From: Gnetum montanum | Taxonomy: Eukaryota; Plantae; Gnetophyta | DNA: 64,000 bases | Assembly (NCBI GenBank): GCA_015680685.1 | Contig: MNCI01000651.1 | Span: 1,727,832 to 1,791,831, forward strand | Direction: 5' to 3' | Shown: positions 1 through 52,232 of the stretch, piece by piece | Position numbering within the stretch: position 1 is the stretch's first letter | How the letters are laid out: every line of letters starts with the position of its first letter | Notes under the pieces: generated by a model | What the model saw: the letters and a program-made list of their open reading frames with translations, nothing else | What the model was told of the DNA's origin: nothing | Databases searched by the model: none | Made by a program: the position numbers and the translations under genes

Positions 1-249
1 TTTAGGCCATTTTCGATAGTGGGATGATGGTAAGGGAAAATTTTGCTAGTTTTAGGCCTTAGCAGGCCATGGTGTAATGCAAATGGAGGACATGTGAATG
101 ACTTAAAGAATAAGTTAGACACTTAGCGTAAATGAGTAAATGTGAAGCAAATAGGGAATAAATGAATAATGGACATTAATTAGATAAGAAGAAATGGAGT
201 TGTTACGCTACACTAGTAATGATCATCCTTGCAACTGCTTCCTAACCCA

Positions 250-3200
250 TCATGGGCTTGGCGACACGTAAGGCTGAGAGGCTTTGTTGCAGCATTCTTC
301 TACGTCATCGTCTACCACTTGAAATGGCAACTCAGCCCATGCAGTTTCATTTTCTAAACCAGCATTTTGGACCAGCTCTTTTGTCAAACAATTAGTATCG
401 AAAAAAATAGGTGCCTCATTCTTAGAGGTTATGACCTTTAAACCCTGCTCTATATCTATGTTATTTATTTCCTGGGTTGTCACTTTATCACAATGGATCA
501 CCACCTCCTTACCTGCATAAGGTAGATGGATTTCCTGATGTATGGATGAAGAGACAGCCCTGAGTTGGGCTAACAACGATCTCCCCAAGATCAGGTTAAA
601 CCTGGGCATCTCTTCCACCACAATAAACATCACACTTATGGGGAACTAGTCCTACAAAGTCAATGTGGATAGTGCCTTTCACTGCTACCCATGCCTCGTT
701 GAATGACTTCAGACATGACGTTGTCGTGGGTTTGATTTGGTCTACCAAACCTAGTTTTTCCACTATGGGGAATGGGATGCCATTTGTAGCAGCCTTGTCA
801 TCAATGTGTACTCTTTGGATCTTATGTTGGCTAACCCGAATTGTGATGAATAGGGGTGCTATCATCACCTAACCCTTTTCAGGGTCTTCCTTAATGGACT
901 CATCACAGAATGTCAATTGGGATGGTTGTGGTTCTTCAGGCATAGAAGGAAGCATGATCGAATGTATTACTTTATGCTCTGTTGGCATGTTCTTGTCAAT
1001 TGGTATGGACATTAGCATGCGAACCAAAACCTCACGGTATGCAATGGAAGTCATTACCAGGTCGTACAGGCTCAACGTTGTGTTCTTTTTTTAGAGCTGA
1101 TTTTACCTAAGTAAGAGCACTTAGGAGGTCCTGTTCACCTTCCTATTGTTTACCAACTTTCTCTTCCTCCATTCATCCTAGAAGACAAATTTCCCGAGGA
1201 GGAGCAGTTTTGGGTTTGGGGCTAGACCCTTTCGGGTGAGGTGGCGATGACCATGTGTGCATAGTGACGTTAACTTTTTGTGATGAGGTGGGCGTAGATA
1301 CAGAGGACGAAGGAGTAGGCTTGGAAGGACCTGGGGTGATATGTTTCGTAGCTATTTCACTTGTCAGAAGCTCTTCCTGTTTCCTTGAATGAGAAGGCTC
1401 TGATGCCTTCATATGTTGGTTTTGTGGGATGGGGGCAGTTGAGTGGTTTGGGCCCCTAATGATGAATGGTGTTTTTGGAATTAGTGTGGGTGGTGGTGTA
1501 GTTTTGTTTACAAAGGGTATAGGGGCAGACGTTCGAGGAGGAACCTTAAGGACAAATGGTTGCTATGGTATCTTTTTTGCCATTATTGGTGTCGCTATGC
1601 TACGTTGAGGTATGCGAACCAGAAATGGCTGCTATGGCAGTTCCAGATTACCATCTACGCCAATCGTGTTGATGATGTACCTTGAATCGTTAGCATTGAG
1701 GGGGTCCTTGTAAACATGCATGGATTGATTTTCAGGGTGGATGATGTTGCTTTCTTCTAGCACCAGCTTTCCCTGATCGATCATCTATTGAATCTCATCT
1801 TTTAAGGCTAGACAGTAATCCGTGTCATGACCACAAAGTTGGTGGTAGTCACAGAACCGCTCCAGCTTGAAGTTCTTAGGAACTGGGGGCTCGTTGGGCA
1901 TAGCCAAGGAGGGGTTCCTAAGGAGTTCACAATATCACTGATGCCATTTGGTCACCTCCTCTGACATCCACTTATGTTGAATGTACCCTACCCCTAGCAC
2001 TTGCTTCAGAAGTTTTGAAGGCTTGACAGGTAATGGGGTATACTTGGAGTGATATTTACGCTCAAAATTAGGTTTAGGCAGGGTGGGTGCCTTAGGCGTT
2101 GACGTGGAGGGTTGAGTAGCGGTGCTTGGGCTAGGTGCGGGGTTAGTTGATGTTGTGGCCACTTTCTTATTATTATTGTTGTTGGGCTTGGCCTTGTTTG
2201 CCAAGGCGGCCACCGTGGCCATTGCGGCCTTGCCCTTTTCTTTGTCCTTCTTAGTATGTGCATTTTTATACGCAACATAGGCCAGGTCCTTACTAGCTTC
2301 AGCCACATCTTGAATGATTTTTTTCTGTGCAAAAACTTGACTGAGGGAGTGCAGGGCTAGGTAATATAGCTTGGATTTGATGAAATCATTCATCGCCCCC
2401 TTGAAGATGGCTAGCAAGTGGGCCTCCGCGATAGGCTCACGAATCTCATTCAAGATGGCGATCCATCGGTGTATAAACCTCTGCACTGACTCTAGTGGGT
2501 CTTGCTTAACTCCCATTAACTAATCTAGCATGACTTCGAGCTTCAAGTTATACTTGAAGCGGGTCATGAACTGGGTCAGCAACTACTCTAGTGTTGAGAT
2601 GGAGGTGCACGGGAGTGTGTGGTACCAGTCTAAAGCTTTGCCTATTAGAGACATAGAAAAGATGTGAATAATGGTGTGTAGCCATTGTTGTAGTAATAAA
2701 GATTCAGATCTAAATGTAACCAAATGTGTGTTAGGGTCATCCTCCTTGTTGTATTTTGTAAATTGGAGGAGCGGCATCCCAGGGGGTAATGTAAGCCTAG
2801 GAACTGCTAGGCTGATGGGGTCATCATGGTAGAAATCCATGATCTGCACCATATCAGAACTGATGGCTTTGAGGTGACTAACCTCCTTAGTAAGGGTTTG
2901 GATAAGCTAAAACACTTGATCCAGACTCGGAGAGGATGTAGATAGTTATGGGGTTGTGAGGGAAACCATCGTTTGTGGCGTAGTAAGGGTAGCAGCTTGG
3001 CTCATAGGGGGGGCCGTTGGGGCTGCCCTTGCAAAGGGTGCTACTTGTGTGGTCCACCACCTAGTGGGTGGTGTTGCTAGAGTAGTGACTACTAGTGGTG
3101 CTGTGGGGTTGGTCATTTGCATGATCGATGGGATGGGCCACAGTCCCGCATTTGGTCGCGATACCTACGGGACTTGGTATGCTTGGTGGTAAGGGTGCTG

Positions 3201-4025
3201 TGACATTTGGTGGGGCTATGAGGTGGGGAGAGAAGTGGCTAGGGTCCACCACATGGTTGAGGCTAGACCTACTACTGATGATGGAATGGATGCAAATGAT
3301 GAGATAGGAGTAGAGGCTCTGGGCAGCTGTGAAGTAGAAGCGGTATGTATGTAGGGCAACGTGGGTGTAATCGGTGCTTGGTACAAGGATGAGATGGAAT
3401 GGGGGGAAAGAGTGCCTAGATACAAAACTGAGGGAGGCGCTTGCTGATACGCTAAGGATGTGGGATGGTTGCCCATGGCAGATGAACATGAAAATTGAAG
3501 TGGATTTGTGGTAATCACAAAGGGAGCTTTTGCGAAAATGGGGTTTGACCTGAAGGCCATGGTAGAAGGGATGGTCATAGGCTAAGTTTGGCCATCCCCC
3601 TCAGACTAGGAGTCTAGATCTTCCTGCCCATCCTAGAATGCTTCATCAAAATGGGATACCGTGTCCTGCTCCCTAGGCCTACTGACTCATAACAACTGAT
3701 CAAAGATCCACTAATACGTCTCCATCAGGGGGATGGCATCATTAGGGTTAGGGATAAAATCCCTCCCATTATGATAAAGGAACTCGAAACTACGTTTATG
3801 CTCAAGTTCTTGGCGATCTAGGGGCAAATTTTCCTAGACCTTTATGCAAATAAAGTCATAATGCTCTACGTCTTGTGCCAAGGACTTAGGTGACAAGTGT
3901 TGAATCCTAAGGGATTGGCGTGGCACCAGCATCAGGCTAGGTGGCCACTCAGCACCCATGGTACTTTGGGCCAAGAAAGGAGCCTCAAGGCTTGAGGTGG
4001 AAACAATGGTCATTGTCGAAATCAT
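250..4025 (-). pseudogene. gag: gag-aspartic protease polyprotein remnant of Tat-1
   Basis: Retrotrans_gag-like DPNTHLVTF...SLIGKALDWYHTLP and QDPLESVQRFIHRW; knuckle FCDYHQLCGHDTDYC (~1810-1860); protease-like VHIDDKAATN and FNLILGRSLL; many stops and frameshifts. Confidence 0.85.
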
Positions 4026-4250
4026 CTTGCATAGTGAGAAAGGAAAAATCGCAAGCTAGGAAACATGGAAATCAAGAGGAGATCAGAGGCTTTTTGTCCT
4101 GCTAGATTCCACAGGAATAGTCGTCATGACCAATTTGCACCACATGATGCGTAAACAACCACAAAAGGGTGTCATGTTTACGCTAGTGCCTGATGGGGTA
4201 CAGAGAGCATGCAGGACTACCTATAGGACATAGAAAAGGCACTGAAAGGG

Positions 4251-4267
4251 CCCTCCTTCTAGCACCA
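4251..4267 (-). promoter_or_regulatory. primer binding site, tRNA-Asn(GUU) type
   Basis: Minus strand TGGTGCTAGAAGGAGGG, 5 nt from the LTR end; near-complement of the plant tRNA-Asn 3' end (CCCTCCTTCTAGCGCCA, recalled rather than searched). Confidence 0.8.
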
Positions 4268-4272
4268 AAAAA

Positions 4273-5062
4273 TGTAGCAACCAAAAAAATGTTGGTGGCT
4301 GGAACACTAAGAGGTTTTCAGGCAAATAGTTTAACCCTGGATTTGTGCGAGGGCCATGCTGGAGAGAAATGGAAGTGGGGCACCCTGAACGGTCTGGTTA
4401 ATCAGACAAGGACTTAGTCGGTGTATCTTAACCTTATGTAAACATTGTTTTAGAGGAAAGACACACGAGGTAAATCGATGATTAATAAATTTAGAATGGA
4501 GAAAATAATGCAAAATAATGATAATAGCAAAGAAATATCAGAACAAACTAGGTAAGAAAATGCACCACCCCAAGGTCACGAATTCAATTCCTTGCCTTGT
4601 TTGAAAGGTATACAATAGGTTATGCAATGCCAGAGATGCACCGCTTACTTAGAGGTAACTAAAGTGCTCAAGAAAGATCCCAACTATGCCTTATGAAATC
4701 CAAATTAAAAGCCAACTGTAGCAAGAAGCCAACTCTATTTTCTAAGAAGCCAATCAAGAAGAAGACCAACCTATGCAAAAAAGCCAACAAGCCAACTGCT
4801 CTTGTTGATGTAAAAAAATGCCAACTCTTTGAATGAAAAGCCAACCCTTTGAGCATTGTTTGCCGAGGTATTTATAAGGCCAAGAGGAGGTGAGAAATGG
4901 GGCCTAGATGCCACGTGTCATGGACCCCACAAGATGCTAACGTGCCTGTACTATGTAGGTGTGCAATGCTAGACATGAACTTGGCTATACTGTGACTATG
5001 CCTCCGGGACTACATGTGCTGAGATTAGTGTGCTAAAAATGTAAACAAAAATGGAGCTTACA
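4273..5062 (-). repeat. 5' LTR of Tat-1
   Basis: TGTA...TACA termini; adjacent PBS; minus-strand TATAAATA at 4869-4876; G-box CACGTG at 4912-4917. Confidence 0.7.
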
Positions 5063-5104
5063 CTCTGAGACTACGTCTTCCCTACTCTTACGAGTGGGGC
5101 CAAG

Positions 5105-6029
5105 TGTAGGAACAATGTTTTGGGAGCTAACTAGGGAATATGCAAAATGAATTAACATTGCTAATTCTGCCAAAGAGATGCCAAAGTGAGGGATATTGCT
5201 ATCAACAAGTTTTAGAACTACCCAAAGATGTCTTGAGGCTTTCGTACCAATGTTGTGTTACTCATGTTGTTGAGTACATTGTTGTAGCATAAGTGGCTAC
5301 TTACTACGCTGTGCTACACTAGGTAGCGTAGCCACTGGTCTTAACTGAAACTTGTGTTGGAGCTGAAAGCATTTATCTAAAGCTTGGTCATGCTAACAAT
5401 GACAACTTTTGTCCTTTGTGTTGGGAATCCTTTGAACCTAGTAAACTCATGTTTGAAACACCCTTACTACTTTTTGCATTGTTGCTACGTTGTGCGATGC
5501 TATGTAGTGTAGCACAACGTAGTAGTCAACGTATCCTGCTTTTTCGTTCAATCTACCATTTTCTAGTAAGAAACTTTGCTCAAGGCCTAGGGCTAAACAG
5601 GGCAATCAATTTTGGAGGCCAAAGTGTTTTCCAAGTGCTATTTTCTTATTAGGATCACTTGGCAAGCTGGGCCTTTCTACTCTACCTTTACTACGCTGTG
5701 CTATGCTACGTAGCATAGCATAGCGTAGCACCTTGTGTTGATTAAATTTTGACTTGTTTTGCAATCATTCCATCAATTTGCACTTGAACGCTTAAGAAAC
5801 TATCTTTCAAGGCTTGCTACACTGCATAGCATAGCAAACTTTCTTCACTAGAAAACTTGCCAAACTACTTTTCTTATCCCAAACACTTTCGACAACTCCC
5901 AACATAGTTTCTGAGTAGACTGTCAGCCAAGTGAATTGTCCAGGTGGGCAAGCCAGAGGGTCCATCGGGCTTGTTAGCTCTAGAGATAGAAAACTTGCTA
6001 GACTGGATAGTCTAACCTCAATGCCTACA
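5105..6029 (+). repeat. probable 3' LTR of a separate plus-strand gypsy element (the target Tat-1 inserted into)
   Basis: TGTAGG...CCTACA termini; preceded by PPT-like GAGTGGGGCC (5092-5101); contains repeated CTACGCTGTGCTA/GTAGCGTAG motifs. Confidence 0.55.
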
Positions 6030-6224
6030 TTTTCCTACCGAACTATCATGACGCTGCACTTGTGGAAGTCCTTGCCTAAATTTCAAGACCTTATTAAGGT
6101 ATGAGGATCCTAAAATTTTATGGTGTTTTAGGGTTGATGGAGGAGATTAGGAATCTAGGGAGGTCATTTTAGGGTTATTTGAAAGCAAAAATGAAGCCTC
6201 CCTCTTGCATCTATGTTGGATCCA

Positions 6225-7715
6225 AATTGGCTAGCATGGATGGGGTAAGCTCCAACATGGTTAGTACCAAAATATGAGTTTCTAGGTTCACTATGACTAG
6301 TTAGGATTTTGATAGTCTATATTGTTAGCGTGGTGGACTACGGATGAAGATTGGTCAACTCTGGCATCAATTTAAACCTCTAGAAGTTACAAATGCTACC
6401 AAGACTACCAACCACACTGGAACTATATTGGCAAATGTGGTTGCAACATTGGTCCATATGAAAAATGAGTTTATGGCATCCAAAGATCAAATTTGATGTT
6501 TTGTTGGCTTCCCAAGTTAGCGCATGGGCATCATAGTTATGAATTGATAATTTGAAGGCCAAAACATAATATCAAATGTGGGTTTTTAGACCTTAATGCC
6601 TAGAGCAGCGCTAGCTAGTGTGGATGATCAAAACATGGCATTTCCATGGCTAAATAAGCCAAATTACAACTGGTTTCAAGGTCTAAGGATTCTAGGATTC
6701 CCCAACTAGGTTTTAGGCCATTTGAAGTGAGGTTATGCATGCAAAACTTGTTTGGAACCTCAACCATGCTAGAGCCATGCTAGCCAGCATGGCTCTAGTC
6801 CTCCCTAGTATGGTTGCACTTGAATCTTGGTTTCTTGTGAGTTCTAGTATTAAATCAATCATGTTTTCAAGTTCCAAGTTTGCTGGTGATCATGCTAGGG
6901 ATTTGGCTTAGAATTGTCAATTTTAAAGGCTATTTAAGTCTTAATATGACCATTTCACCTTGGACTATACTTGCTAGCATAGTTCCCACATGGATGGAGG
7001 GTATGATGAATTTTTGACAATTTTGACTCAATTTTTGAGGTTTTTTGATGTCTAATGCCTCCAGTAGGGTTTTGGGGTTAGGATGATCCATTGGGATGTC
7101 AATTTGGTTTATTTATGAGCTATTGTTTAGTTTTGATTATGGAACCACACTAGGACTATGTTGGCCAGCATAATCTTAGGCCTCCTCAATGTGGCTCTAA
7201 GGTTGAAATTGGTTTTAGCTTGTTTTTACATAGTTTTTGTTAGTTTAAAGTTTCTAGAGGTCTTAAGAAGGTGTGGAGGCTAGGATGCATTGGGATAGGG
7301 TGCTCTTTAGCATGGTTCCAAGGTCAAGATGGGGTTTTACATGATTTTTCTTGGTTATTTAACATTTTAGGGTGCCTGAGGACTCCAAGGAGGTTTAGAG
7401 GTTAAGAAATGCAACCTTGAAATCTATTTTATGTCATCTTATGATCAAATCTTTACCAAACATGTAGGGACTATGCTAGATAGTGTGGTTGGAGTGCCCC
7501 CATAGTGGTTCACCCAAGACAAGCGATTTTCAAAAACTTTTGTTGGGTTTTAGGAGCTTTTGAAGATACCAAAGGATTTGGCAAGGGTTTAGGATTTGGA
7601 GTGACCATCCTAGAGTTGATTAGAGGTTTGACTAGTGGTGGAAAGTCCCATATCCCCTAAAGAAATGATGGCCAACATGGTTGGGCATTTGGCTAGCATG
7701 GCTGCTCAAAGTAGC
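6225..7715 (+). repeat. dispersed degenerate motif array (approx. GGACTATGCTAGCCAGCATGGTT) upstream of the antisense gene
   Basis: Variants near 6230, 6325, 6610, 6775, 6962, 7153, 7468 and 7690. Confidence 0.5.
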
Positions 7716-8331
7716 ATGTTCAATTATGAATTTTTGCTTCTTTTGGGGCTTGGTACCTTCTTGAGTTAACATCTAGGTTCTAAATTTGACATGGAATTTC
7801 TATGGTTTCAACATGTTATGGGAGGGTGGCTAGGAGGCAAGGTTTTTGTAATGGTTAAGGTTGGGAATCCATTCAAGGATTCTTGGGTGTTTAACCCCAC
7901 TGTAGATGTGGGTGGGAATTGTAAATCCTATTGTATTGGGATTTTTGGTGTTATGATTGGGAGGCACTTAGTGGGACCCATCCAAGTTTAAATGGTTTCT
8001 TTGTTTCAAACTTTCCAAGATCCCAATGTGATTTCAACTTTTCTCCTTTAAACTCACAATTCACTATGGGTTGAGTGAGTGTTTTTGGAAAGATGTTTAG
8101 GTTGAGGGTGCATAAGTGTGGAATTCATTTTCACATATCAGTTTTATAAGATTCTTTCCTAAAACTCATTTCTCATAGGAAATGCCTAGCTTCTAGGCCT
8201 TTTAGCAGTTTTTGATTCAACTCCATCAATCCTCAACATTGATTGGCAAGAATTCACCAGGGAGCAACACAATTATGAGGAGGTTGATAGAAGAATTACA
8301 GATTTTGAAGGTTTTGCATTGTCCATTCAAG

Positions 8332-9134
8332 ATGTCAACAAGGAGATATTCAACAAGTAAGAAACTAACCTTGGAGGAGGTAGAAGTAGTTGTGAAGGGA
8401 CTCTCCACCCTATCATAGCCTCTACTTAGAGAGGGTTCATCCATCATGATTGCCAAGTACACTTCTCTAGCCATTTTTCTATGAATTTTGGCTTTGAACC
8501 TAGCATTTTTCTTGATGTAGAATTATTTCTTACATGGAATTTAATTCCTGTAAAATTCCTATGCTATATTTAAGTCATGGTTATGGATTTGTAACATTGT
8601 TTTGATTTTAGTATTTTTTTATGCCAAGTTTTAAGTTTAATTTTGCTTTATTCAATGCATATTTAATGCTTCCTAACAAAAAATGTAATGCCACTTTCCA
8701 ATTCTTTTGCTAGAAAATAGTATATAATTTTTTTTCTAGGGCCATAAGAATTTTTCTACTATTTACGAGTTTTTTTGGTTGTAAAGTCACTAAATTATGG
8801 TCTATGGTTAATTTTTTATGAATTTTTTGGTAGACCAATGCATAGTGGAATTTTGGGTTTTCATTGTTTTACCTCCTCGAAATAGGCAACATTGACATCA
8901 TAAGAAACTTTTTCTACCAACATCCTAGCTTCCTAGGGATGCTTAGGGTTGTCTAAGAGGGTTTGACATTAGTTCATGAAAATTTAAATTCTTTTTCATA
9001 TTGTTTTTAGCCCTGTACTATGACCATTTTCTACTATTTAGTTTTTTTCTGTGAAATTTTAAATTTCTTTTAGACAACCTTGTGAATTTTTTTACAACCT
9101 CAAAACTATAGCATTGATACCAAATTTTGATAAA

Positions 9135-9166
<32 letters not shown>

Positions 9167-12100
9167 ACTAGACATTAGAAAAAAATTTTAGTACAAATTT
9201 TTCATTTTTTGTGTATGTGTAAATTGCCCTGTACAGTTCTAATTTTGGTTGTTGGAACTACAAACCTTCCTAGCTATACATGCAATGTTGGCCTATTTTT
9301 TGGGAAATGTTAAAAATTCCTATGGTCATTTATGTGTTGTATTTTAGTTCCCAAAAGTCATTTGAATTTCTCAAAAATTTAACTAACTCCCTAGAGTTTT
9401 TACTATAGTTAATTTCACTATAAACTATGATTTTTAGTTGAAATTTTGTCAAATTAAAATTGGGATTTTAGGGTTATTATTGTGGGTTGTGTTTGGGTAC
9501 AAGCTAATTCTGATGATTTTGATTTCTTTACATAAAATGTTTATAATTTATGTATATTTTCACCATGAAATTACCATTGGTGTTAATGGGCTACTTGGTT
9601 TTTCTTATTTTTTTGGTTAAATTTTACTTTGGCTTCAATGTTTAAGATTTGTAAATTTTTGTATTTGGTATAGTGTAGAAACATTGACATTATGGTTGTA
9701 ATAATTTTGATCATTTAATAGTTGTTAAATCTTTAGTTATGATCATTCATGATTTCAATGGTTATTGTTGGATTGTGCAGGGCCTTCTTGAAGCCCATCT
9801 TGGTGGCGATCAAGCTTGTTGGGCTCTTGTGTTAAATTCACACACTAGTATCCAACACAGTATCTACTAATATGGTGTTGGATTAGGGCTCTCTTTGGTT
9901 TAGGGTCGAGAGCTAAGGAATTTCTAGCTTACCTATTATAGAATTTTAGTGTGATTATGTGGTCACACTTAGCATTCGAAATAGTGGCTATAATTGTGAA
10001 AACCTTACTGCCTCACTCCACCATATTGATCATCAAGTTCATAATTGATGATCTCACTACTCATGTTGAGGGTGATCAATTTGATGGCATATACACCAAG
10101 GACACACGTTAGTTGTTCAAAGTCTAGGATATGCCTAAATTCATCCAGTATAACAACAACAACACTTTGTTGGTTGGCCATTATGCCAACACATCATTCT
10201 AGAATTCTCTTGGTACCATCTACCATGTGGAAGGGCAAGTGTAATTTTAAGTTTTTGGTTTCATTAGGCTACTTGGGTTTAACAATTTTTTGCTTGGGTT
10301 GGTATGTTTGTAGGTATAGGGTAGATGAACAAGGGTTGATCAAGAGCAACCAACTCTTGTCCTTGGCTCAAATAGCACTTGAGGTCTTTGACAAAAGCCC
10401 AGCAGTGAGGCTTGTAGTGATGGAACAACTCAAGGATGAATTTGGTAGGTATACCTCACACTATTCTCAAGCCTACCGTAGGTTGCTTAATGAATGGGAC
10501 AACCAATAGTTGGTGGGGAATCCCTAATTTGGGTGCACAGACATGCATATCCCTTAGGTTTTTCATGTTTCCTTCACCAAGTAAGCAAAGTAAGAATTTT
10601 TATTTTTTTAATTATATATATATTTTTAATTTTTTATGCAATATCAACATTTTTCTAGTTACATAATTGTCAAGTTTTTAAGGCTTTGATTGTTTTATTT
10701 GTTTTGTGTAATGTGCCTATGCCAAAGCTAATGAGTTATCTTCATTGTGTTGTAGGGACTGCAACATCATCCATCATAGTTGTGATTACTTCAGGATGTG
10801 TAGAGGAGACACTTATCATCAAGTTTAATGAGGTGGATGCGATGTAGCATCAATTGACTAGCCAAGCATCCAGGGAGATCTAGGTGAGGATCACCAATGT
10901 AGGCTTACTTGACTTGTTCATGGTTCCTATCCCAATCATCCCTATCCCTAAGATGGTGAATGTCATAGACTCCTTTAACAAAGGAGTGAAGAAATTTTTT
11001 ACTCAAGTCCATGATGTGCCTATCAAATTGGCCATCAATGAATCCACCTTCAGTGACCTCTTTGGCATTCCTAGTGAGGAGGTAAAAGTTGCCACAAAAT
11101 CATGGAAACATGTGAGCCATAGGAATAAGGTGGAAGGATGGCTAAATAGTCATTGTAGCCACTCCAGATTGACATTAAATGATTGCTAGGATGTAGAGGT
11201 AAACAAGTTGTATCCATTGTTTTGGTCCTACACATTTCCAAAGTTGCTATCATAGAAGAAGATCATGGGCATTAAATAGGCATGGACTATGAACAAGATC
11301 CTCATTAAGGATGCTCAATTTAATTAGGCTGTTCATTTGGTTTCTGGGCTATGATAGAAGATTCTTAAACTTTGGGACAACCTTGATAAGATATGCCACA
11401 TGTAGTATTTTTTGCAGCATACCTAAGGTGGTTTGTGGAGTTCCTAGTGGTGAGTAAGGATGGATGATGGGTAAGTCGAGATCCATCCCAACTATCTAAG
11501 CCTTGGATGAAAGATATGTTTCCAACCATGTAAGCATAGAATCCACTAGAGGATTTTGGGGAATCACTATCTATTACTACTAAGCACTTTAGTGGTAGGC
11601 ATTATTCTTTCCCTGATAGCATGGGAATTGAATCCCAAGTTGCTTGTGGAAATGTTTAGAAGGATAAGAAGTTGCATGTTGAAGTTGATAGAGTAGCTAG
11701 AGAAAAACTGAAGAGGCCTATGGTTAAGGAAGTAGCACCAATTGTTAAGAAACCCTTGAAGAGGAGGCTTGTGGTTATACTTGGCTAAGCACAACATGTG
11801 GTTATAGGTATGTCTTATTGTAATTTTAGTTTAAGTTAGTTATAGTTTATGTTATATGGTCATGTTATTGTTTTTGTGTTAGGAAAAATATGAAAACTTG
11901 TTCTACATTATGTCTTCTTTGTTCTTGCAGGTAAACAACAAGAACTAGTGGTCCTAGTAGCAACAACAAAGGCTAAATAGAAGTGCCTAGAGGAGGAGGT
12001 GCTACAATAGCATAAGGATGAGAGACTATACAATGCTACATTGGATGCCTTTGATGCTCTATTTGATGGTTCACAGCTAGGAGAATGTCTTGTTATTCAC

Positions 12101-13505
12101 CTAGATGATCTTCTAGGTACTTATGAATTTCATTTTGCACATTATATTTTGTAGTTTCATGTTTGAACCTTGTTTTAGTCATTGGACTATGTTCATGTTT
12201 ATTGTAGCTCTTGAACCTTAACTTGATGCTTCCACATCTATGTTTCTTATGAAATCATGGCTAGAGGTTCCAAACAAAGTAGAGTTCATGTATGGGATGG
12301 CCAAAGACATGATTAATTGGTTGCAACAAATTGCTACCAATGTTGGTAAGAACTTTAGCTTATTTTGATTTTACTTATTTTTATTGTTTATGTATATTTG
12401 TTTTGTATTTGTTGTATGTTTATATGGTATTATTGGTTTGAAGTGTTTTTTGGTTATTTTGTTATTTTGTTATGTGTTTTTCACATGGTTTTATGTGTTT
12501 ATGTTTTGTTGTTTGTAGTGTTAAAGGTTGGATGGGATTTCAATAGTTTTGTTGAGATTGATAAACTACCCAGCTTGTTACCTAAAGTGGAAAATGTTCC
12601 ATGAAGGTTGTATGAAAGTTCCACTAAATGTGCACTATCATATGCTAGAAACTTATGGTAATTCCAACATTCAAATGAGTTCCTATGGGAATGAGTTTTA
12701 GTGATGGAAAGAGAATATAAGAAATAGGTTGAGGAGATTAGAGATCTCAAGGATCGCAACGAGTTTGTGGAAGTCAAAGTGGCTAACAAGGATTCCTTGA
12801 TAACTAAAGAGATTAAGTGGGCATGGTATTGGAATTCCATTCATGGAAAGGTTACCCTTGTAATGAGTCTCATGGAGCAAAAGCTGCAGATGGACCTAGT
12901 GGCTTGAAAAGCTAGGAAGTGGAGGGACTATTGTTCTTGGGGTCCTTAAGTGGGATAGAGAACAAAAGGATCATATGAAGAAGTATAAGGCTAAACAAGA
13001 GAGCTACCTCAAGTGGCTATAAGAGGATATTTGGAGCTATTCATGAGGGAGATTAATGCTGGAGATGCCTTCAAGTTGTTTGAAAGATCTCTAGTGGTAG
13101 TTGATTCTCTAACTCCTCATGTAACTACCACTTCTTGGAAGGTGACTAATGCTACATTTTCATGAGAGCCACTCATATAGATTGATGTTGATGAGAGCAA
13201 CATCCTGATTAACGTTAATCTTGGGGAAGTGGATTGGACCCACATGACCAAAGATTAAATTCTACATCATCTAAAAGTTTGTATTCAAAACTTTCCCATA
13301 GAAGATGTTGTTCTAGAACCTTCCTAGGTTTGTTTACTTTTTAATTAATTTCTTATATTTTAGTTTTGTTTTTTTTGTGATTTAATTGTATTGATTATTG
13401 ATTAGACCTTTGTTGTTATGATTGGTACAAGTATCAAGTGATGGTAGCAGCCCCAGTGATGATCACATTAGAGATGGTCCTCCTTTACCTCTAGTTGGAC
13501 CCTAG
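8332..13505 (+). pseudogene. 8-exon accessory gene (~1000 codons), antisense to Tat-2; central region resembles plant-transposon/env-like accessory domains, with a coiled-coil-like C-terminus
   Basis: Exons ~8332-8456, 9781-10234, 10314-10580, 10756-11807, 11931-12116, 12208-12345, 12519-13327, ~13431-13505; T-rich introns, mostly GT..AG (intron 2 donor GC, last acceptor degenerate); phases match across introns 1 and 2; includes ORF pieces 10045-10509 and 10884-11189; many premature stops. Confidence 0.7.
9135..9160 (+). repeat. (GT)13 microsatellite in intron 1
   Basis: Read directly from the sequence. Confidence 0.95.
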
Positions 13506-14842
13506 TCTCATCTTTTTGATCATCTCTTTAGTTATCTTGTGGTTGATATTGTTTATTCTTATTTTTGATACTGTGATGATGTAGTGGCTAGTCTTAGCCA
13601 TTTTTATTATGAGAGACGATTATTATTATTTTGTAATTGCTACATGATGTAGCTATGGTTGTTGAGACACTTATCTATATTTTTATATCATTGTTGATTG
13701 GGCTTGTGTCACATGATGTGACTATGGCTATAGGTTATGGATGCTTTATCATTATTTTTTTATTTTTTGTTTACATATTATAACATTTCTAGTTTTATGC
13801 ATTTTAATATCCTACATTTTGTTTCATGTTATGAGGCTATCTTGTGCTACGCTGGTTAAATTATGTGATAAAATTTCATAAAGTAAATGCAAATTAACTA
13901 GGCCAAAAAAAGGGTAGAATAAGGCATAATGGTTGTAAACAAGTTGTGAAAGTGTTGCTAGTTTTAGGCCATGATGGGCCATGACGTTTTGCCAGTTTTA
14001 GGCCTTAGTGGGTTGTGAGGTTTAAAGAAATTTTTTTTTGTAAGTTTTTAATTTTAAAATTTTTATAGTTTTTTTTCTTTGTTCATCCATCTTAATTAAT
14101 TAATATAGGATGCATGTGTGTATGTATTTTAATGGTATTTTATTGTATGGTGAAGGAATGTACTTCTTGTTGTGATGGATAAGCTCATATTCACATTTGG
14201 ATTTTGCCTCCACATGTGGGATGAATAAACCATCCTAAATTTTAACATAGGTGAAATTATAGTAATTTTCATGAAAGATGATAAAGTCTAAGCTTTGCTC
14301 CCTTAGTCTATGCAATTGCCTATGCTTAGGCACAACATGTTCTTTTAGATCATAAAACTTCATCGTAGTTTAGCTTGATGCCATGTCTGTCAAGTTAAGG
14401 GGCAAACATATGGTCTAGTTGAAAGATGTTATCAATAATTTTAATTTTGTTTTAATAATTTTTTTTGATTAATTAGAAAAAAAATTCTAGCAAGTGGAAT
14501 TGTCCAAGGTGCAAAGGAGTATGGCTAGAAAATGATGGAAACTGCAACCATAGGTGCAATGCAAGTTACAATGATAGGGGTGTGCACTATAGTTGGAAAG
14601 ATGTGATAGCTTTAGTGTTGGTAAAACTAACTATGATGGCTTTGCTAGTAGGGGTTACACTTAGAGGGGGGAAGGGGGTAAGTAATCAATGATTATCTTT
14701 CCTAACAACACTATGTTGGGGTACCCCCTCTTGGTAAAGAATAGGCTTATTTTTTGAAAGAAGTGTAAAACTTTGGTTTCTTAAGGGTTGCATTGGAGAC
14801 TTGGGAGGGACCAATGTTGGCTTTGCCACAAAATTTCACATT

Positions 14843-14952
14843 TGGGGGGGGGGAGGGGAGGAGGTGGGGGTGTGTGGGGAGGGCGGGGTTGGGGGTGTGG
14901 GGGCGAAGTGTGGGTGGGGATGGGTTTGAGGAAGGAGGGTTGGGTGGTTGGA
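14843..14952 (+). other. G-run tract, potential G-quadruplex
   Basis: More than 12 runs of >=3 G, starting with G11, in an otherwise AT-rich context. Confidence 0.75.
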
Positions 14953-15230
14953 GTAGAGCAATGCTGGCCTTTGGAACACATAAAGGTAGGTTCAATTGGT
15001 AACCATGCTGGCTTTAGAGAATCCAACAACTACTATGAAAATTTTACAAAAAACCAAATTACCTGCAACCATAATGCTAGGTTTTTGTTGTAAGAAAATG
15101 GATAGCAATGTTGGTTTTCTATGGTAGGTTTTTAATGTGAATGTCAAGAGTTTAGAATTATGAGAAAAGCAAGAAAAATAGCTATTTCAAAAGGGGAAAA
15201 ATAGGGTTTGACAACAAGCTTGGGTGGAGG

Positions 15231-15247
15231 CCCTACTTCTAGTGCCT
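15231..15247 (-). promoter_or_regulatory. degenerate tRNA-Asn PBS of Tat-2
   Basis: Plus strand CCCTACTTCTAGTGCCT versus CCCTCCTTCTAGCACCA in Tat-1. Confidence 0.7.
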
Positions 15248-15373
15248 AAAAATTGTTGCACTTGAAAAATTAGATCATTAGAAAACCAAAAATTTTAGAT
15301 GTAGAATAGTTTAAACCTTGGATCCGAAGGGCCTTTGAGAAAGAGGATCCAAGGAACCTTGGACTATCTTTTT

Positions 15374-16462
15374 TGTTGACCTTTTATTATGTCAAAACCT
15401 TAAGGAAAATGGAGAACATAGGATGTTTATGTGCTATTGTGTTTATAGGGTAGGATTGTGTGTGGACAAGGACTTCATAGAGACATCATCAAGAACTTAA
15501 ATTGAGAGAAGAAGGTGTATGGAAGTTCAAGAACATCGATAAGAAATGTAGATTTCAATAGACAAAGTGAATTGAAGAAATACATCTCCAAGAAATATAA
15601 GATAGCATGACAAAGTTAAAGGTAGCATAGAAGAAGACATCCTTGGAAAACAAAAGGTGTCACTTGGGATAGAAAGACATCTTTCATGTGAAGAAGTTGT
15701 CTTTATAGAATGAAGGTCAAATGCAAAAAGACATCTTTCCAAAATGAAGGTCAATTACAGAAAGATGTCTCAATCTTGGGAAAGATGTCTCTAGTGAGTG
15801 TTAGTTAGTTGTTACATGAATTTTGAGGTGACTTCGAAAACATATTAGCTATAAGAAGACTTCATTCCCATTAGGAAATGTGCAAGCTTTGGTACTATCA
15901 ATTGTAAATCGTCTAACAATCATTGTAATCATTATTTTTTCTCATTGTACAATATTTTGTCTATTGTAATTGGTCAAAGTGAGTTGTGCCTTAAAGTACA
16001 AGGATTAGAAGAGTTAGTTGCATGCATTTCTTATAATTTTTTCTCTTTTATTACCCTGTGGGGTTGATGTTCTTCTTATAGGAAGGCATCATTCTTAAGC
16101 TTGTTGTGATCATATGGGATTGAGTTTTGCTATAGCGTAAGAATACTTCTGAGTTGAGCTCAAGTTGTAAAGGTTGTGGGATCCTAGAAACCATATTCTA
16201 AGCTTTTTGGAACCTTGTATGTTTGATAGTTATCATAGCAATGAAAATATCCTTAGTGAAGCTTAAACTTAGGAAAGGTTGTGGTTCCCCTCTAAATCAC
16301 ATTTTTGAAGGAACAAATTTTGGAGGTGTCCAAGCAATCTACCCTCAGAGTATGGACTACCTAATTTGGGGAACCACATTAATATTAGTTGTGTTCTTTG
16401 TGTTGGATAATTTTTAATTTGAATAACTTATTCATCCCCCCTTCTAAGTTCAATGATCCTCA
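15374..16462 (+). repeat. 5' LTR of SIRE-1
   Basis: TGTTGACC...CCTCA; homologous to the other four copia LTRs; followed by a Met-i type PBS. Confidence 0.85.
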
Positions 16463-18379: not shown

Positions 18380-21109
18380 TTGGGTCATTTAGAAGGCTTG
18401 CTCCAAGGCTTGGGGCATTCTTGTAGGTTGTGGTATTTCATTGATGGTTGTGAAGGATGTTGAATAGCTTGGGAATGTGCAATTGGCATTAGCATATATG
18501 AGAGAGTTTGTGTGACCACCATCATAGGAGGGTTAAATAGGGAGAATGAGGTTTGAGTTGACACATGAGGGATAAAGAAAACAAACAAAGTGTAAGAAGC
18601 TTGTGAAGTTTGTTTTCTTGAAGAGGGGCTTGCAGGTATGATGAAAGGATGGGATGTGATAGATACCATAGGTAATGATCATACTAAATGAGGTTGTGTT
18701 ACAAAATGCATTAATGTAAATAATGAGATAGAGTGAAAAACTTGTTGAAACTAGTGTGTTATTACAAAAGATGTTAAGGTGATCATAGATGTAAATAAGA
18801 AGGTAGGTTGAAGAATTTGATCTATAGAGGAGATAGGAGGTTTAGAGTTGGAAATGGTATTCTCAAGAACCAAACGTTGTCAGAGGTTCCCTATGAATGT
18901 GTTTGGTTCATACATTGCTTCAACTCATCTTATTCCTTTTGATTTTTCTCTAAGATATTTTCTTTACTTACTTCCTCCATTTCTACTAGTTGTGCTAGCA
19001 TCGTGTATGAAAATATGTTATCTTGATATGGTCATAAGGGGAGGGGATATATTCCTTCTTGTTTTTGTGAATAATTTCAAATCACCATTTATACTTCGAT
19101 TCTATGCATGAGATGAAAAGGCCAACTTGAATCTTAGCATGAATGAAGTTATAATTATCTTTATTTATTTTTGTATAAGATGGGTTCAATCCCATCCATC
19201 AGAGCGATTTCCTACATTTTACCACATCAAGATCCTTGGGATCATAGATATAGACAAATTCTTGGTTGGAGGCCATGTGTGTTATGTTCTGAGATAAAAT
19301 TGTGAAATGATGAAAAGGCATAAAAGTTATAAGGAAAATGTGTGAAATCTCAACTCGTGAGAAACCCCAACATATAAGTTAACTTGTGGAAATCTCAACT
19401 TGTGAAAAATCCCAACATATAAGCTAACTTATGGAAATATCAACTTGTGATAAATTCTAACATATAAGCTAATTTATGGAAATCTCAACTTGTAAGAAAT
19501 CCCAACGTATAAGCTAACTTATGGAAATATCAACTTATAAGAAATTCCAACATATAAGTTAACTTGTGGGATCTCAACTTGTGAGAAATCTCAAAGTATA
19601 ATTTAAATTATAAGATTTCTAGTTTATTAAGATGCCAACGTATTAAGAGTTTCAACTTATGAAACTCTAATGTATTAACTACAACTACAATGGAAAACTG
19701 AAAATTTTTTTAAATTTTTTAAAACATATTTAACTAATCCTATGAGAAATATTAATAGGTTTCAATGTATATGATATTTCCAAAATAAAAATTGGTAGCT
19801 TGCAAGTACATAAACAAACAAGATAATATGCACTCTAACCATAAATATGAAAAAAATTGTAAGCATATGAATAGGGGTAACACTACATATTGCAATAATA
19901 GAAATTGAAATTAAGTTTTTTGGTTACTAATGTGCGGGGCCAAAGTAGCAGAGTGCACTATAATGGTCAAAAATCAATTTTTCTTTGGATTTCTAGGTGT
20001 AGGTTATTAAGGTAGAGCTATGTGTTATACTGCAAAAAGTAGTGATGGAAAATTTTGTTTGTTGCTAAAAAATGGTCGTAGTTCTACATGTTAGGCTTTG
20101 AAAAAAACCTTTTCATAGTAGATACTAGTAAATGTGTTTTGGTCTAAGAAGTTAGGTGGAGGCCCTCCTTCTAGCATTAGAAACTGTAGTGATGGAAAAA
20201 TTCGGTGCTGGAAGACAAAAAATTCTTGTATGAAATAGGTTAACCTTGGAACCAATGAGCCTTGGAAAAGATCCAGAGTATCTGAAAAGGTCTTGCTAAT
20301 CACTTGATAACTTGGAGGATCTGTTATTGGAATGAAATTACAATAAAAATAAAAAAGAAAATGCAGAAATACTAGAACCTGTGCTGAAATGTAGTTGTAG
20401 AAAATAATGAGTAAATGAACAAAAATTCTACAAAATATTTGTATGAATGCTATGAAAATATAAGGTTCAAAGAGTATACAATTTGGAACTAAAATTTTTC
20501 CACAACTCCTTAAAAATGGTGGTGAAAATATAATTTATGGATGGGTAGTGTGTGTCTTGTAGTCCTTCCACATATGCCTATTTCATTCATTCTACAACAA
20601 GATCTCGGTGCTTCTAGTGATCTACTCTTAAAGATGTTACAAATTCTTAGATCTTCCTCTCTCTCAAAAGTATTATGTTAGAAAGAATTGCAAAAATTAA
20701 AAAGTCCTTAAATTGAAGCAAAGTTTAGTTTAAATAGGCTATGGATATCTTGATTTATTGCTAGTAAATTTTTCCATGATTGCTACCAAAGTTTTGACAA
20801 ATTATGAACATTTTGAAAGATTTTGGTAGCCAAAATCTATAACATATGATGCACAAATGTTTTAAATATTTTGAGCATGCAATACCAATGTATTTGGCAC
20901 TTGGAGCCTATTAATCACTAACGTTTTTGACTTTTCTTGCCAAATTTGATAGCATATTTGGGCTATTTTCATAGCTCTAACTTCAACTTATGTGCCACCA
21001 ATATTTTTGGGTTTTGCTACTAAATTTTGGCATTGTATTTACATTTTAGGCTCCATAAGTTAGCTTAAATGAAATTCTAGCATTGTGGGCTGTAAATTTC
21101 ATGTTTACA
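18380..21109 (-). mobile_element. Tat-3: 5' LTR (20185-~21109), PBS, leader with tandem array and a degenerate gag 5' end
   Basis: PBS CCCTCCTTCTAGCATTA at 20163-20179; LTR start homologous to 4273-4390; minus-strand TATA-like at ~20730; Pro/Ser-rich minus ORF 18385-18669. Confidence 0.6.
19344..19612 (+). repeat. 45-bp tandem repeat, ~6 copies, decaying to ~19680
   Basis: Unit GAAATCTCAACTTGTGAGAAATCCCAACATATAAGCTAACTTATG starting at 19344, 19389, 19434, 19479, 19524 and 19569. Confidence 0.92.
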
Positions 21110-23326: not shown

Positions 23327-24417
23327 TCCAGATCAAGAACATAGAAGGTAAGTTAAATAAGTTTCCTAGTTAAAATTGAACTAGCCACATGAACACACCA
23401 AATTTTATGTGGTTCACTAACTTGGGTACATCCACACTCAGAGGGTAGAATCTATGCACACCTTTGAACTTTGTTTCTTTGCAAATGTGGTTTGAAGGAC
23501 ACCACATCCTATACAATCTTTGAGATCTGCTTTAGAGTGTTTCATTATTGCAAAACCACTCAACCCTATTAGGTCCCAACAAGCTTAGAATGTGGTTTCA
23601 AGGATCCCACAACCTTTACACGATTAAGCTCTGCTTTGAAGTGTTTTGACATTGTAAAACCACTCAATCCCACATGATCCTAACAAGCTTAATATGAATG
23701 TCTTCTCACAAGAAGCACATCAGCCCCATAGGGCTACAAGAAAGAAAGAGAAAAGAAAAAGGAAAGAATGTAACTAAATTTATAGGTCCTTGTACTTGAA
23801 GATTAGTACAAATTATAATCAAGTTAATGATGTTATAATGAGGAGCAAGAATAGAATTACATAGAATGGACAATGATAGATCTTTTTTTTTGAACAAACG
23901 CTTGCATAATTTCCAAGATTTGATATTATCTTATAGCCTTGAAGTTTTTGAAAACTTCTTAGAATTTATGCAACAACTACCAAAAGGCTAGTGTAGACAT
24001 CTACTTTGAAATTAGAATGTAACTGAGATTGGCCTTGATGCAAGTGAGCTGTCTTTTTGGCAGGTGGGACGTTTACAGTGGGATGTCTATAGTGAGATGC
24101 CTATTGTTAGAGTTAGAGTTTTGCTATTTTTCTAAGATGTTTTCTCATCTTTTAAACTTTAACTTCTAAGGCTTTTTCCTATTAATTTTCCTTCTTAGTA
24201 GTCCTTGGAGAATCTTCATTTGATCTGTAAACTTCATTTTCATCCATGCTCTCATGTTACCCATATTTTCATTTCAACATTTTGTCATAGATCTCATTTC
24301 CTTGAGTTCTCAAATCTCATTGTGGAATTTTTGTTCATGTCTAAAAAATCATCATACATCACAAACATTCTATATCCTTAATGTTCCTTAAGGTTTTTCC
24401 ATACCAAAATTTCAATA
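23327..24417 (-). repeat. 3' LTR of SIRE-2
   Basis: Direct repeat of 28537-29548; internal ~105-bp dimer at 23486-23690. Confidence 0.9.
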
Positions 24418-24649
24418 ATTCCCCCTTTTTGATGATGTGCAAAACTTAAGAAAATTGGTTATTATGGCTCATAAAAAATTTAAAATAATAGTTTTCTCCT
24501 CCTTTTTGGACATAACCAGAAAGGGTTAGAAAAAATCCCATAAAATATATGTAAGGTAAAGAAAGAATAATAAGAATTGTATGTATGTATGTATATGAAA
24601 ATCTAGAGTAGCTATGTATTATTTGCAATAATAGGTAAAAACCTTACTT

Positions 24650-27600
24650 GATAGGATAAGGTCTTATCTACATGTCTTTATAGAGAACAGTAAGTCACCA
24701 TTCATCAAGAGGTTTGGTAAAAGCATGTGCAAGTTGATTTTTTGTTCCAATGAATTCTAGTTTTACATGTCCAAGTTGAGTCTGTTTTTGTATAAAGTGA
24801 TGATGAATTTTGATCTATTTTGTACAAGAATGTTGGATAGGATTCTTGTTCATATTGATGGCATTACTGTTGTCATAATAAATTGGTGTAGATTGGAGTT
24901 TTACCCCTAAATATTTAAGTGTTTAATTCATCCATATAATTTGTGCATAACAACTTCCAGCTAAAATGTACTTAGCTTCTATCATAGAGAGTGCTTTAGA
25001 AGATTTCATTTTCATTGGCCAAGAGATAAGACTCTTTCCTAGGAAAAAGTAATTTTCACTTGTGCTTCTACAATCATCTAAATAACTTGTCCAATCTACA
25101 TCATAATATCCAACAAGATTAAGTGGGGAATCATTTCGATACCAAAGTTTCCAATTAGCAATACCGTTTAGATAATGAAAAATATGTTTAATAGCTTTTA
25201 AATGGGATTCTTTAGGATTTGCCTGATATCTTGGAAAAATTCCTATACTTAATGCTATATCTGGTATAGTCATAGTTAAACAAAGTAGGCTACCTATCAT
25301 ACCTCTATAAAGCTTGAGATCAATAGGTTTTCTTGATCATCTTTAGTGAGCTTAAAGTTTTCTGCCATAGGAGTGTTTTTTACCTTTACTTTTGTCAAGT
25401 TGAATTTGAGTAGTAGATCCTTGATATACTTAGTTTGACAAATAAAGGTTTTTTTTTTGTCTAATTGCTTTGAAAACCAAGAAAGTTGTTAAGCTCTTCC
25501 ATTATGCTCATTTCAAATTCTGATTGCATAAGATCTAAAAAAGTCTACATAGAATATCATTATTTTCATCAAAGATAATATTATCAACATAGATTTGAAG
25601 AATAAGTAAACCATTAAATTATCACTTGAAAAATAAAGTGACATTAGCCCTACCTCTTTCAAAGCCACTAGATGTAAGGTGTTGGGAAAGTCTTTCATAC
25701 CAAGCTCTAGGAGCTTATTTGAGCTCATAGAGAGCCTTCTTGAGATGATCAGGATTACTAGGATCTATAAATCCTTCAAGTTGTTCAACATATATCTCTT
25801 CTTAAATGGTCCCATTTAGAAAGGCACTTTTCACATCCATTTGATATAGCTTGATGTTTTCAGTGCTAGCATATGCCAAAAGAAGTCTAACAAATTCAAG
25901 TCTTGCAACAAGAGAAAACATTTCCTCAAAGTCAATTCCTTCTTGTTGATTATATCCTATTGCAACTAGTCTAGCTATATATTTAATGATATTCCCATTT
26001 TCATCTATTTTATTCCTAAAAACCTAGTTCGTGCTAATAATTGGTTTATGATTTGGCTTAGGTGTCAATTCCCATACATCATTCCTACTGAATTGATTAT
26101 GTTCATCTTGCATAGTAGAAATCCATTCTTCTTCTTCTTCTTCTACTTCTTTGAAGTTATTGGATTCTAGTTGTGAAAAATACTAAGTATAAGCACAAAT
26201 TTTCTTAGTTTGGCTTCTAGTGCTAATTCCATCTTGTACATGTCCAATTACATCATTAAGAGAGTGTTTTCTACTAAGTCTAGGTATTTTAGGTAGAATT
26301 AATGATATGTCCTCATTTTTATTCTAATTCTCTTCCTCATGTTTACTATCTACTTCTGAATTTTTATCAATTTGAACTTGGAAGGTACTAGATAATTTTT
26401 GAATGTAAACTACTTCATAGTCAAATTATGGAGAAGTAATGTCACTATAATCAAATTTAACATTTATAATTTCTTCTACAACAGTTGTTCTTTTTTTGAA
26501 GACTCTATATGCTCTACTAAGAGAAGAATATCCTAAGAAAATTCATTCATCAGTTTTAGGATCAATTTTTCTTGAGACATATTTATCATTAGGAATATAG
26601 CATTTAGAACCAAAAACATAAAAATAACCAATGAAAGGTTTTATACCAGTCCATAATTCATAGGGAGTTTGGTAAATTTGCTTACCAAAACTTTGTTGGA
26701 GACATAGCATGCAGTGTTAATTGCTTTAGCCTAAAAAGGGTAAGGGAGATTTTTTTCATTCAATATGGTTCTCTCCATTTCATTCAAGATCCTATTCTTT
26801 CTTTAGGCTACACCATTTTGGTAAGGAGTCCTTGAAGTAGAGAATTTATGAATAATGTCATTCATTTGATAATATTTTTCAAATTTAGCATTTTTGAATT
26901 CTACTCCATTTTCACTCCTGATGAATTTGATACCATAGCCTTTTTCTTTCTGAATTTGATTACAAATTCTTGAGAAATGATCAAATACTTCATCCTTGTG
27001 ATATAAAAATGCAACCCAAGTAAAATGAGAGTAGTCATCAAAAATGGTTAGAAAACACATTTTCTTTCTCAAACTAAGTGTTTGAGAAGGACCAACTAGA
27101 TTCATGTGAAGTAAATATAAGGAATGAGAGGTAGAGATGTAGTTTTTCTTACAAAACCTTACCCTTATTTGCTTTTCCTTTTGTCATGCTTCACAAGTGT
27201 TCAAATTGAATTCTTTGAGTTTGAGCAATCCAAAAATCATTTTCTTTGTCACCAAAGTATGAATAATTTCATTGTTTATGTGGCCCAACTTCCTATCACA
27301 TACAAGCATCATATATATTATTGATCAAGCACTTGGATTGTAGGTTAGAGTTGTCTTCAAATACACTGTTGTAAACATTTGCCTTTCTAACTCCTTCTAT
27401 AATAATGATTCTAGAGGTTAAATCTTTTATTCTCCAAGTTTCTTTTGAGAAAGTAACATCAAAATTTAAATCACAAAGTTAACTAACATTGAGAAGATTA
27501 TGCTTTAAACCTTTAACAGAGAGAATTTTATTTACAGTAGGTTGTCCCTTACATTTCCCTCCTATGGTACCAATACCTATTATAGGAACTTCCATGCCAT

Positions 27601-27900
27601 CCTCAAATGTGATGGTTCCATAATTTGGTTATGAAAAATGTATGAATTAGGATTTATCTCTTGTCATATGTCTTGAATAATTTCTATCAATATACCATGT
27701 GCTTCTTTTGACTACAAAGAAAGCAACTTGAGCCATCATGTTTTGTTTGGGTTTCCTCTCTTTTTACTTCCAAACTTTCCTTCCCTACAAAGCATCTTGT
27801 CTAGGCTAGTTTTGAAAAGACCAAGTGTAATGTTTCATCCAAAGATATCAATAAGCCTAAAAATGTCCAAATTTTCCATAATAAAAATAATTTAAAGTCT
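24650..27900 (-). pseudogene. pol: copia pol (PR-INT-RT-RNase H), disrupted
   Basis: WYIDRNYSRHMT (~27665-27700); integrase ORF 26803-27105; RT QMDVKSAFLNG (~25815-25845); ORF 24923-25300 MIGSLLCLT...YQANPKESHL. Confidence 0.93.
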
Positions 27901-39191: not shown

Positions 39192-39247
39192 AATTCAGTC
39201 TTGAAAGTTGAAGCATAAACTTGAGAGTACTAGGATTTGATACCACT

Positions 39248-44793: not shown

Positions 44794-44897
44794 TACCCAC
44801 ACAACTGAATATTAACTTGTCCTCAAGTTAAACAAAATGAAAACGAGTTCAATTGATTACATAGTGGATAGGTATGAGATTATTGACTAACTAGGAA

Positions 44898-52100: not shown

Positions 52101-52232
52101 GGTTGTGAATTGTGTGTGACTTATTTGCAATTACTTTCTTTCTAAAAGATATATCATCAAGGATTTGTTACAGTAATCTTGGATGATGTAACTACTCTAA
52201 ATAACTAGCACCATCCCTGAAAAAGGCACCAA

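Follow-up and report, generated by a model that had tools for sequence, protein, structure and literature searches.

A repeated eight-exon gene, dead at this locus and antisense to a Ty3/gypsy remnant in Gnetum montanum, is a probable accessory gene of a Tat-type family

How does a gene with seven introns come to lie antisense in the remains of a retrotransposon, and is it part of the element or a stranger to it? The question is raised by a 64,000-nucleotide stretch of Gnetum montanum DNA (assembly GCA_015680685.1, contig MNCI01000651.1, positions 1,727,832 to 1,791,831 of the forward strand), here called the window and numbered from its first letter. The window is AT-rich, of plant type, and built from long terminal repeat (LTR) elements that are nested and decayed. 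A first-pass annotation had placed a plus-strand gene at 8332..13505 and taken it for apparently the only cargo of a minus-strand, Tat-type LTR element. The gene itself is borne out by our analysis. We read the locus, with moderate confidence, as the dead copy of a multi-copy gene with introns and ∼1,000 codons, which lies antisense by an LTR stub, a primer site, and a gag remnant and probably serves a Tat-type family as its accessory gene; the structural part of this reading we hold with good confidence.

Structure, decay and repetition of the gene

Eight plus-strand exons could be placed in 8332..13505, totaling 3111 nt or 1037 codons, in agreement with the eight exons and roughly 1,000 codons first proposed. 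All seven introns begin with GT and six of the seven end in TGYAG. The splice sites are therefore mostly canonical, as had been claimed, with the exception of the weak AAG acceptor of exon 8. The six TGYAG acceptors of the model are the largest steps from T-rich to T-poor sequence among the 19 such sites of the region, with a drop in T content of 0.13–0.33, compared with 0.10 or less at the remaining 13. Introns have a T content of 0.48 and exons of 0.29. A segmentation by composition alone recovered six of the seven introns, using frequencies that came from the gene model and hence not independent of it. The exon-intron structure is real.

The frames on either side of introns 2, 4, 5, and 6 are in phase with each other, and the lengths of exons 3, 5, and 6 are multiples of three. 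Intron 3 fits given one frame change near the start of exon 4, and intron 7 has no clean phase fit. Matching phases had been described across introns 1 and 2; this stands for intron 2 and, given one frame change in exon 2, for intron 1. The proposed exon 1 (8332..8456) is uncertain, because its region holds two open frames: an in-frame ATG also occurs at 8275, and the competing frame at 8190–8357 has its own acceptor and a GTAAGA donor. Exon 2 (9781..10240) carries a single internal frame change and encodes a domain of no recognized type. It is followed by exon 3 (10314..10580, 267 nt), by exon 4 (10756..11807), with two frame changes, and by exons 5 (11931..12116, 186 nt) and 6 (12208..12345, 138 nt), both in phase 1 on either side. 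Exon 7 (12519..13327) has two frame changes and ends in TAG at its donor, and exon 8 (13432..13505) is the least certain of all. Exons 1 and 8 of the model are thus unsure. The T-rich 3′ untranslated region reported at first is present as a T-rich 3′ region of the gene at 13506..13945, also on the plus strand.

The modeled frames, which were partly chosen by eye, contain 36 stops in 982 codons, compared with 171 in 1942 for the other two frames. TAA and TGA together are depleted in them (p = 1e-9), whereas TAG makes up 21 of their 36 stops as against 51 of 171 in the other frames (p = 0.002), and only three CAG codons remain beside the 21 TAG stops. The result is the same in five phase-linked segments (16 stops in 468 codons versus 83 in 926). 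The observed/expected CpG ratio is 0.08 over 8332..13505 and 0.26 for the whole window. From this pattern of stops and codons we infer a coding gene after long decay by methylation-driven C-to-T change. The once-coding gene is now dead in this copy, which has 36 stops and needs five or more frame changes across its length; the first-pass annotation left this state unsaid.

Contigs of four DNA runs were aligned to window positions 1–15400 at 80% likeness; their summed depth indicates relatives and is not a copy number. In run X1 the summed depth is 800–2100 in the bins of exons 2–7, compared with 8–15.5 for contigs identical to the locus, and gene-related contigs occur in all four runs. Among the matches listed, contigs 15%–18% diverged cover intron 2 and exon 3 up to its donor, and likewise intron 4, exon 5, and intron 5. 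Because these diverged contigs span introns 2, 4, and 5, the relatives carry their introns as DNA, and the gene is multi-copy. An intron-skipping joint is absent from the 15 joints shown of 2267. The annotation had named a single-copy host gene as the finding that would speak against it; the many related contigs over exons 2–7 show otherwise. We also note contigs from two differently labeled organisms that differ by ∼2%–6% from window positions 6800–14600. These are likely the same locus, in which case the insertion would predate the split of the two organisms.

The Ty3/gypsy remnant around the gene

The element reads on the minus strand, and its 5′ side is preserved to the right of the gene. 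A stub of the 5′ LTR (15256..15365, 110 bases) is cut by a plus-strand Copia-type element. It matches two other LTR ends at 67 of 98 and 68 of 91 positions, a level reached by none of 300 shuffles. It is followed by the primer binding site (∼15229..15250, minus strand), where the annotation had already noted one; the same motif recurs at 4249 and 20161. We take the site to be of the Asn type, and comparisons for a tRNA-Asn identity gave nothing to match against. The stretch at 14394..15228 is assigned to the minus-strand 5′ leader by its position, and 14070..14393 encodes, on the same strand, a remnant of ∼110 codons from the 5′ end of gag. Alignment to two other copies defines this remnant: the start of the neighboring element's gag (3920–3670, score 93) and a third copy (19276–18960, score 159), neither score being reached in 2,000 shuffles. 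The annotation had found only ∼100 bp where gag should be, and the surviving codons at 14393–14070 contradict it. The three minus-strand copies (3920–3670, 14393–14070, and 19276–18960) share a conserved domain of ∼100 residues where the gag frame begins.

The neighbor's gag frame continues into a PF03732 gag domain. The LTR stub, the primer-site motif, and the gag remnant are all homologous to an element with a PF03732 match, which makes the remnant one of a Ty3/gypsy element. With the gene on the plus strand and both gag remnant and primer site on the minus strand, the antisense placement stands: a multi-copy, intron-containing gene opposes a Ty3/gypsy remnant.

Between gag remnant and gene lies a short repeated motif (13946..14029, no strand assigned) that also occurs just after the neighbor's protease stop (window positions 34–110), ∼170 bases past it, with a core alike at 21 of 22 positions. 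Many contigs join the two places that hold this post-protease motif. In the related neighbor, protease is joined to gag in a frame ending at ∼250 (gag identified by Pfam, protease by eye); in the present copy this part is deleted. Because the gag 5′ remnant is followed by the post-protease motif, the present copy has lost most of gag-protease by internal deletion. The 3′ end of the gene starts ∼450 bases beyond the motif, and the gene seems to follow gag-protease directly rather than pol.

On the other side, 6169..8331 (no strand assigned) is non-coding, moderately repeated DNA of the same age class and likely contains the gene promoter. To its left, a younger minus-strand block (1..6168, edge approximate) comprises a gag-protease element with an LTR, including an LTR-like part at 5115–5904. 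The observed/expected CpG ratio is 0.06–0.12 over most of 6169–15228, compared with 0.25–0.42 over 250–6168; the short part at 13506–14050 has 0.27, from three sites. Contig depth jumps at ∼6170: in X1 it is 2,000–30,000 over 1–6168, 150–340 over 6169–9252, and ∼390 over the gene 3′ end and the leader. As both the level of CpG decay and the depth change there, the younger block cuts or interrupts the gene-bearing element near 6170, and for this reason the 3′ part of the element (pol and 3′ LTR) is invisible. Contig depth has no single-copy gap between the gene and the primer site.

The annotation had set the gene inside the element. The 5′ side of that claim stands, with LTR stub, primer site, and gag, whereas no 3′ LTR could be tied to it. 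That the gene was the only cargo is not supported, given the gag remnant and the cut near 6170; the claim is unproven because the 3′ part, with or without pol, is not visible. The LTR-like part at 5115–5904 was tried as the missing 3′ LTR. It has TG...CA ends and short inverted termini and abuts the neighbor's LTR, with which it may form one long LTR. It does not match the 5′ LTR stub (160 of 300 shuffles do as well) and is younger. Its junction presumably resembles a Tat 3′ end. This part also contains a near-perfect 38-base palindrome (5691–5728) that has relatives at 5305 and 5483; it matches very many contigs, whose flanks are unrelated.

A promoter upstream of exon 1 would belong to the gene and give a separate spliced mRNA, whereas the genomic RNA of the element would be the opposite strand, so that the introns would survive copying. 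That antisense orientation protects introns through retrotransposition is established logic. The gene would lie directly 3′ of gag-protease, and pol, if the family has any, would have followed further on, where it is now cut off near 6170.

The predicted protein and its known counterparts

The product would combine an N-terminal domain of no known type, a middle part distantly resembling PMD, a basic signal for the nucleus, and a coiled coil. Exon 4 contains two motifs that, by eye, we take to be spaced as in PMD-type domains, and near its end a basic stretch resembling a nuclear signal. The charged, coiled-coil-like exon 7 has a best heptad register that is 62% hydrophobic, compared with 27%–52% for the others, and a weak match to JAKMIP_CC3 (E = 0.029) that stays under the cut-off. 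The protein is predicted to be nuclear, and its target would be chromatin or the integration complex.

With the decayed query, PMD (PF10536) gave no match at E ≤ 1 for the exon pieces or at E ≤ 0.1 for whole frames, and neither did Transposase_28 (PF04195) or ATHILA ORF-1 match in either set. Pfam is also silent on the accessory open reading frame (ORF) of a neighboring element, which makes its silence weak evidence. Since the query is decayed and Pfam misses that ORF, the middle part may still have a distant PMD fold. None of seven exon peptides aligned to the neighbor's accessory ORF better than shuffles. A PDB sequence search returned no row for exon 2 and two for exon 3 (best E = 0.81), and a single-sequence fold prediction was unusable (pLDDT 33). 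The first part of exon 4, run with HMMER over 1.84 billion protein representatives, drew one match, which we rejected as chance: P0009, a repeat protein of 4352 residues that matched in ten weak stretches. Two further candidates were rejected: L001 reads, by eye, as the reverse strand of a frame resembling bacterial lysyl-tRNA synthetase, and L002 matches over 15 residues in a viral contig.

Antisense accessory genes are common in plant Tat elements. Among Ogre elements, 60% have extra antisense ORFs, as do 86% of Retand and 18% of those in TatIII (PMC6317226, supplement 3). Asn primer sites occur in 15% of TatII, 4% of Retand, and 12% of Athila elements (PMC6317226, supplement 3). The Tat label is putative: no pol was found in 5115–15250, and Asn-type primer sites are found in Athila as well.

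The closest counterparts come from Tat lineages III, of gymnosperms, and V, which carry antisense ORFs of the PMD and PMD-coiled-coil kinds (Ustyantsev et al., 2015, PMC4408406). Like the present gene, the PMD-coiled-coil ORFs are large and lie antisense to gag; they have a predicted coiled coil on the C-terminal side (PMC4408406), where the present gene has a putative one, and the PMD motif likeness of the present gene was seen by eye. In contrast, the present gene has no PMD match and has seven introns, none being mentioned in the available text of that report, and their ORFs occupy the element's 3′ end, whereas ours seems to come after gag-protease (PMC4408406). Retand TRP28 ORFs and maize Grande gene23 are likewise antisense accessory genes with a presumed promoter of their own, with short repeats nearby and non-autonomous copies (PMC11963269; PMC7264820); for gene23 an own promoter and a nuclear product are described (Vicient and Casacuberta, 2020, PMC7264820). 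The present gene differs in having no Transposase_28 match, the main text on Retand TRP28 does not contain the word “intron” (Vicient, 2025, PMC11963269), and Retand is reported there only from eudicots and monocots, with the ORFs between pol and the 3′ LTR (PMC11963269). The aORF-3R class shares the antisense orientation and lies between pol and the 3′ LTR; here no pol was seen, and the gene stands directly after the post-protease motif.

Outside plants, an extra antisense gene, brtn, is found in Boty elements of Botrytis (attributed to Zhao et al., 2011). The gene reportedly has many exons. It resembles the present gene as an antisense addition to a Ty3/gypsy element (PMC7264820; PMC4227169; 10.1101/2021.04.13.439636); unlike it, brtn is fungal and sits between pol and the 3′ LTR, and the likeness is one of description only. 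Multi-exon antisense non-coding transcripts are reported from Arabidopsis Copia elements. A full-text search, with most subscription papers outside it, found neither an antisense protein gene with multiple introns in plant Tat elements nor any gene in the gap between protease and reverse transcriptase. The class of antisense accessory ORFs is therefore not new; what differs here is the presence of seven introns, the orphan status of the protein, and a position that seems to follow gag-protease. A repeated seven-intron orphan gene widens this class. Its structure suggests capture of a whole gene at the DNA level or in reverse. The present copy, being dead, offers by itself no functional handle.

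For function, it is possible, in our tentative view, that this PMD-like, coiled-coil protein acted in the manner of PMD- or VANC-type factors and would have kept its family transcribed or aided integration. The anti-silencing VANC proteins of VANDAL and the PMD of MAIL1 suggest a possible mode, that of a transposon-borne chromatin factor with a coiled coil (10.1101/2024.04.02.587720), and differ in that VANDAL is a DNA transposon and that the likeness is one of mode. Anti-silencing would be our first guess, at low confidence, on account of the likeness to PMD-coiled-coil ORFs and of the fold shared by VANC and MAIL1 (PMC4408406; 10.1101/2024.04.02.587720).

Doubtful, by our estimate, is a more specific arrangement in which a large Tat family carries the antisense gene of eight exons nested between gag-protease and pol, inside a would-be Ogre-type intron, and the gene encodes an orphan chromatin factor of 1,000 residues. 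Ogre resembles the locus in that its gag-protease is split from pol by a spliced gap (PMC4408406), as the neighbor's gag-protease here stops and is followed by non-coding DNA. It differs in that the available parts of the sources describe no gene in this gap (PMC4408406; PMC6317226, supplement 3) and in the Arg primer site of 89% of its elements (PMC6317226, supplement 3). If the nested arrangement were true, the same DNA would be removed as an intron on one strand and would yield a spliced helper mRNA on the other, and surveys based on ORFs would miss such genes.

Contrary evidence, rival explanations and neighboring elements

Several results weigh against reading the gene as an accessory gene of a Tat-type family. 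At the element, the whole-motif score of the short post-protease match was reached by 5 of 300 shuffles; no reverse transcriptase or extra RNase H supports a Tat placement in 5115–15250; and no 3′ LTR, polypurine tract, or target duplication in the window could be tied to it. Among the contigs, none of the 32 pieces listed of >300,000 links gene and element, no other whole copy was seen, so that the linkage is known from the present locus, and the level of repetition in exon 1 and the DNA upstream is about a tenth of that in exon 4. On the protein side, no Pfam family rose above the cut-off in eight exon pieces or three whole frames, and no protein search yielded a homolog. The annotation had looked to spliced RNA reads for support; in four RNA runs labeled as the same species, of which 26%, 26%, 2%, and 2% were read, no read crosses a spliced joint. 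Aligned reads at least 95% alike number 0 of 37, 0 of 123, 5 of 896, and 2 of 498 in the four runs. Nearly all aligned reads matched the stretch over only part of their length, and bins of high depth reflect poly(T) look-alikes and 40 bases shared with other transcripts. In the two oligo-dT runs, exons 4, 6, and 7 received a few reads <90% alike, a number too small to indicate expression.

The lack of a 3′ LTR, in a window full of nested truncated elements, leaves room for the gene of a DNA transposon (of the MULE, CACTA, or Helitron type), brought into or beside the retrotransposon remnant by insertion or deletion. Many short introns are usual in the accessory genes of such transposons. The PMD of Tat ORFs is related to that of MULEs (PMC4408406). 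We nevertheless judge this origin unlikely. Flanking terminal inverted repeats, which the annotation had named as evidence against its own view, do not pair between 5115–8331 and 13400–15365, there is no transposase match, and gene, gag stub, and leader stand at one level of decay and are all repeated.

We think it decidedly unlikely that the family was, as first proposed, non-autonomous and devoid of gag, protease, and pol, with the gene as its only cargo and a helper in trans. The interval 5115–15250 indeed contains no protease, reverse transcriptase, RNase H, or integrase, all of which the same scan detects in another decayed element of the window (53877–63899, our positive control); a second pol-less element with an accessory ORF is present in the window; and non-autonomous Retand families are known (PMC11963269). 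However, a 5′ part of gag survives, and the element's 3′ part is out of sight. In addition, the copy at 18380–19276 continues from the same gag start into P/S/T-rich, gag-like sequence, which points to a deletion in the present copy; this continuation has no significant alignment with that of the neighbor.

An ordinary plant-type gene structure would also suit the pseudogene of a multi-copy host gene family lying beside a retrotransposon remnant, which we regard as highly unlikely: word searches confined to longer proteins found no homolog with the first part of exon 4 (0 of 315), exon 3 (0 of 33), or the second part of exon 2 (0 of 47), nor did the first part of exon 4 among the 1.84 billion representatives; summed contig depth is about a hundred times the single-locus level; and heavy CG and CHG decay runs through the exons. 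That decayed, T-rich repeat DNA gave the exon pattern by chance is barely credible. Frames were partly set by eye with at least five changes and exons 1 and 8 are weak, yet the shortage of stops persists in the phase-linked segments, the lengths of three internal exons are divisible by three, and the splice motifs fall on composition steps.

Several other elements of the window were noted. In the neighboring minus-strand element (250–4000), the gag-protease frame stops at ∼250 and non-coding DNA follows; its summed depth in X1 is 2,000–30,000. A third element (18380–20330), joined directly to a truncated Copia element, shares the primer-site motif and the gag 5′ domain and has a 45-base tandem array within its leader. 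The pol-less element mentioned above (43930–53104, minus strand) has LTRs 87% alike and gag (PF03732), with no reverse transcriptase, RNase H, or integrase match in 48900–52230. Within it, a decayed sense ORF of ∼1,000 codons (47990–45000) has a long coiled-coil-like part and no Pfam match, and the element is, from its sequence, apparently a second one that combines absence of pol with an accessory gene. The control element at 53877–63899 is a complete, decayed Ty3/gypsy element with gag, protease, reverse transcriptase, RNase H, and integrase, and its LTRs are 91% alike. Four related Copia-type LTRs on the minus strand (23330–40337) are 75%–81% alike and spaced 4.4–6.3 kb apart, and a fifth related LTR lies on the plus strand at 15366–16460.

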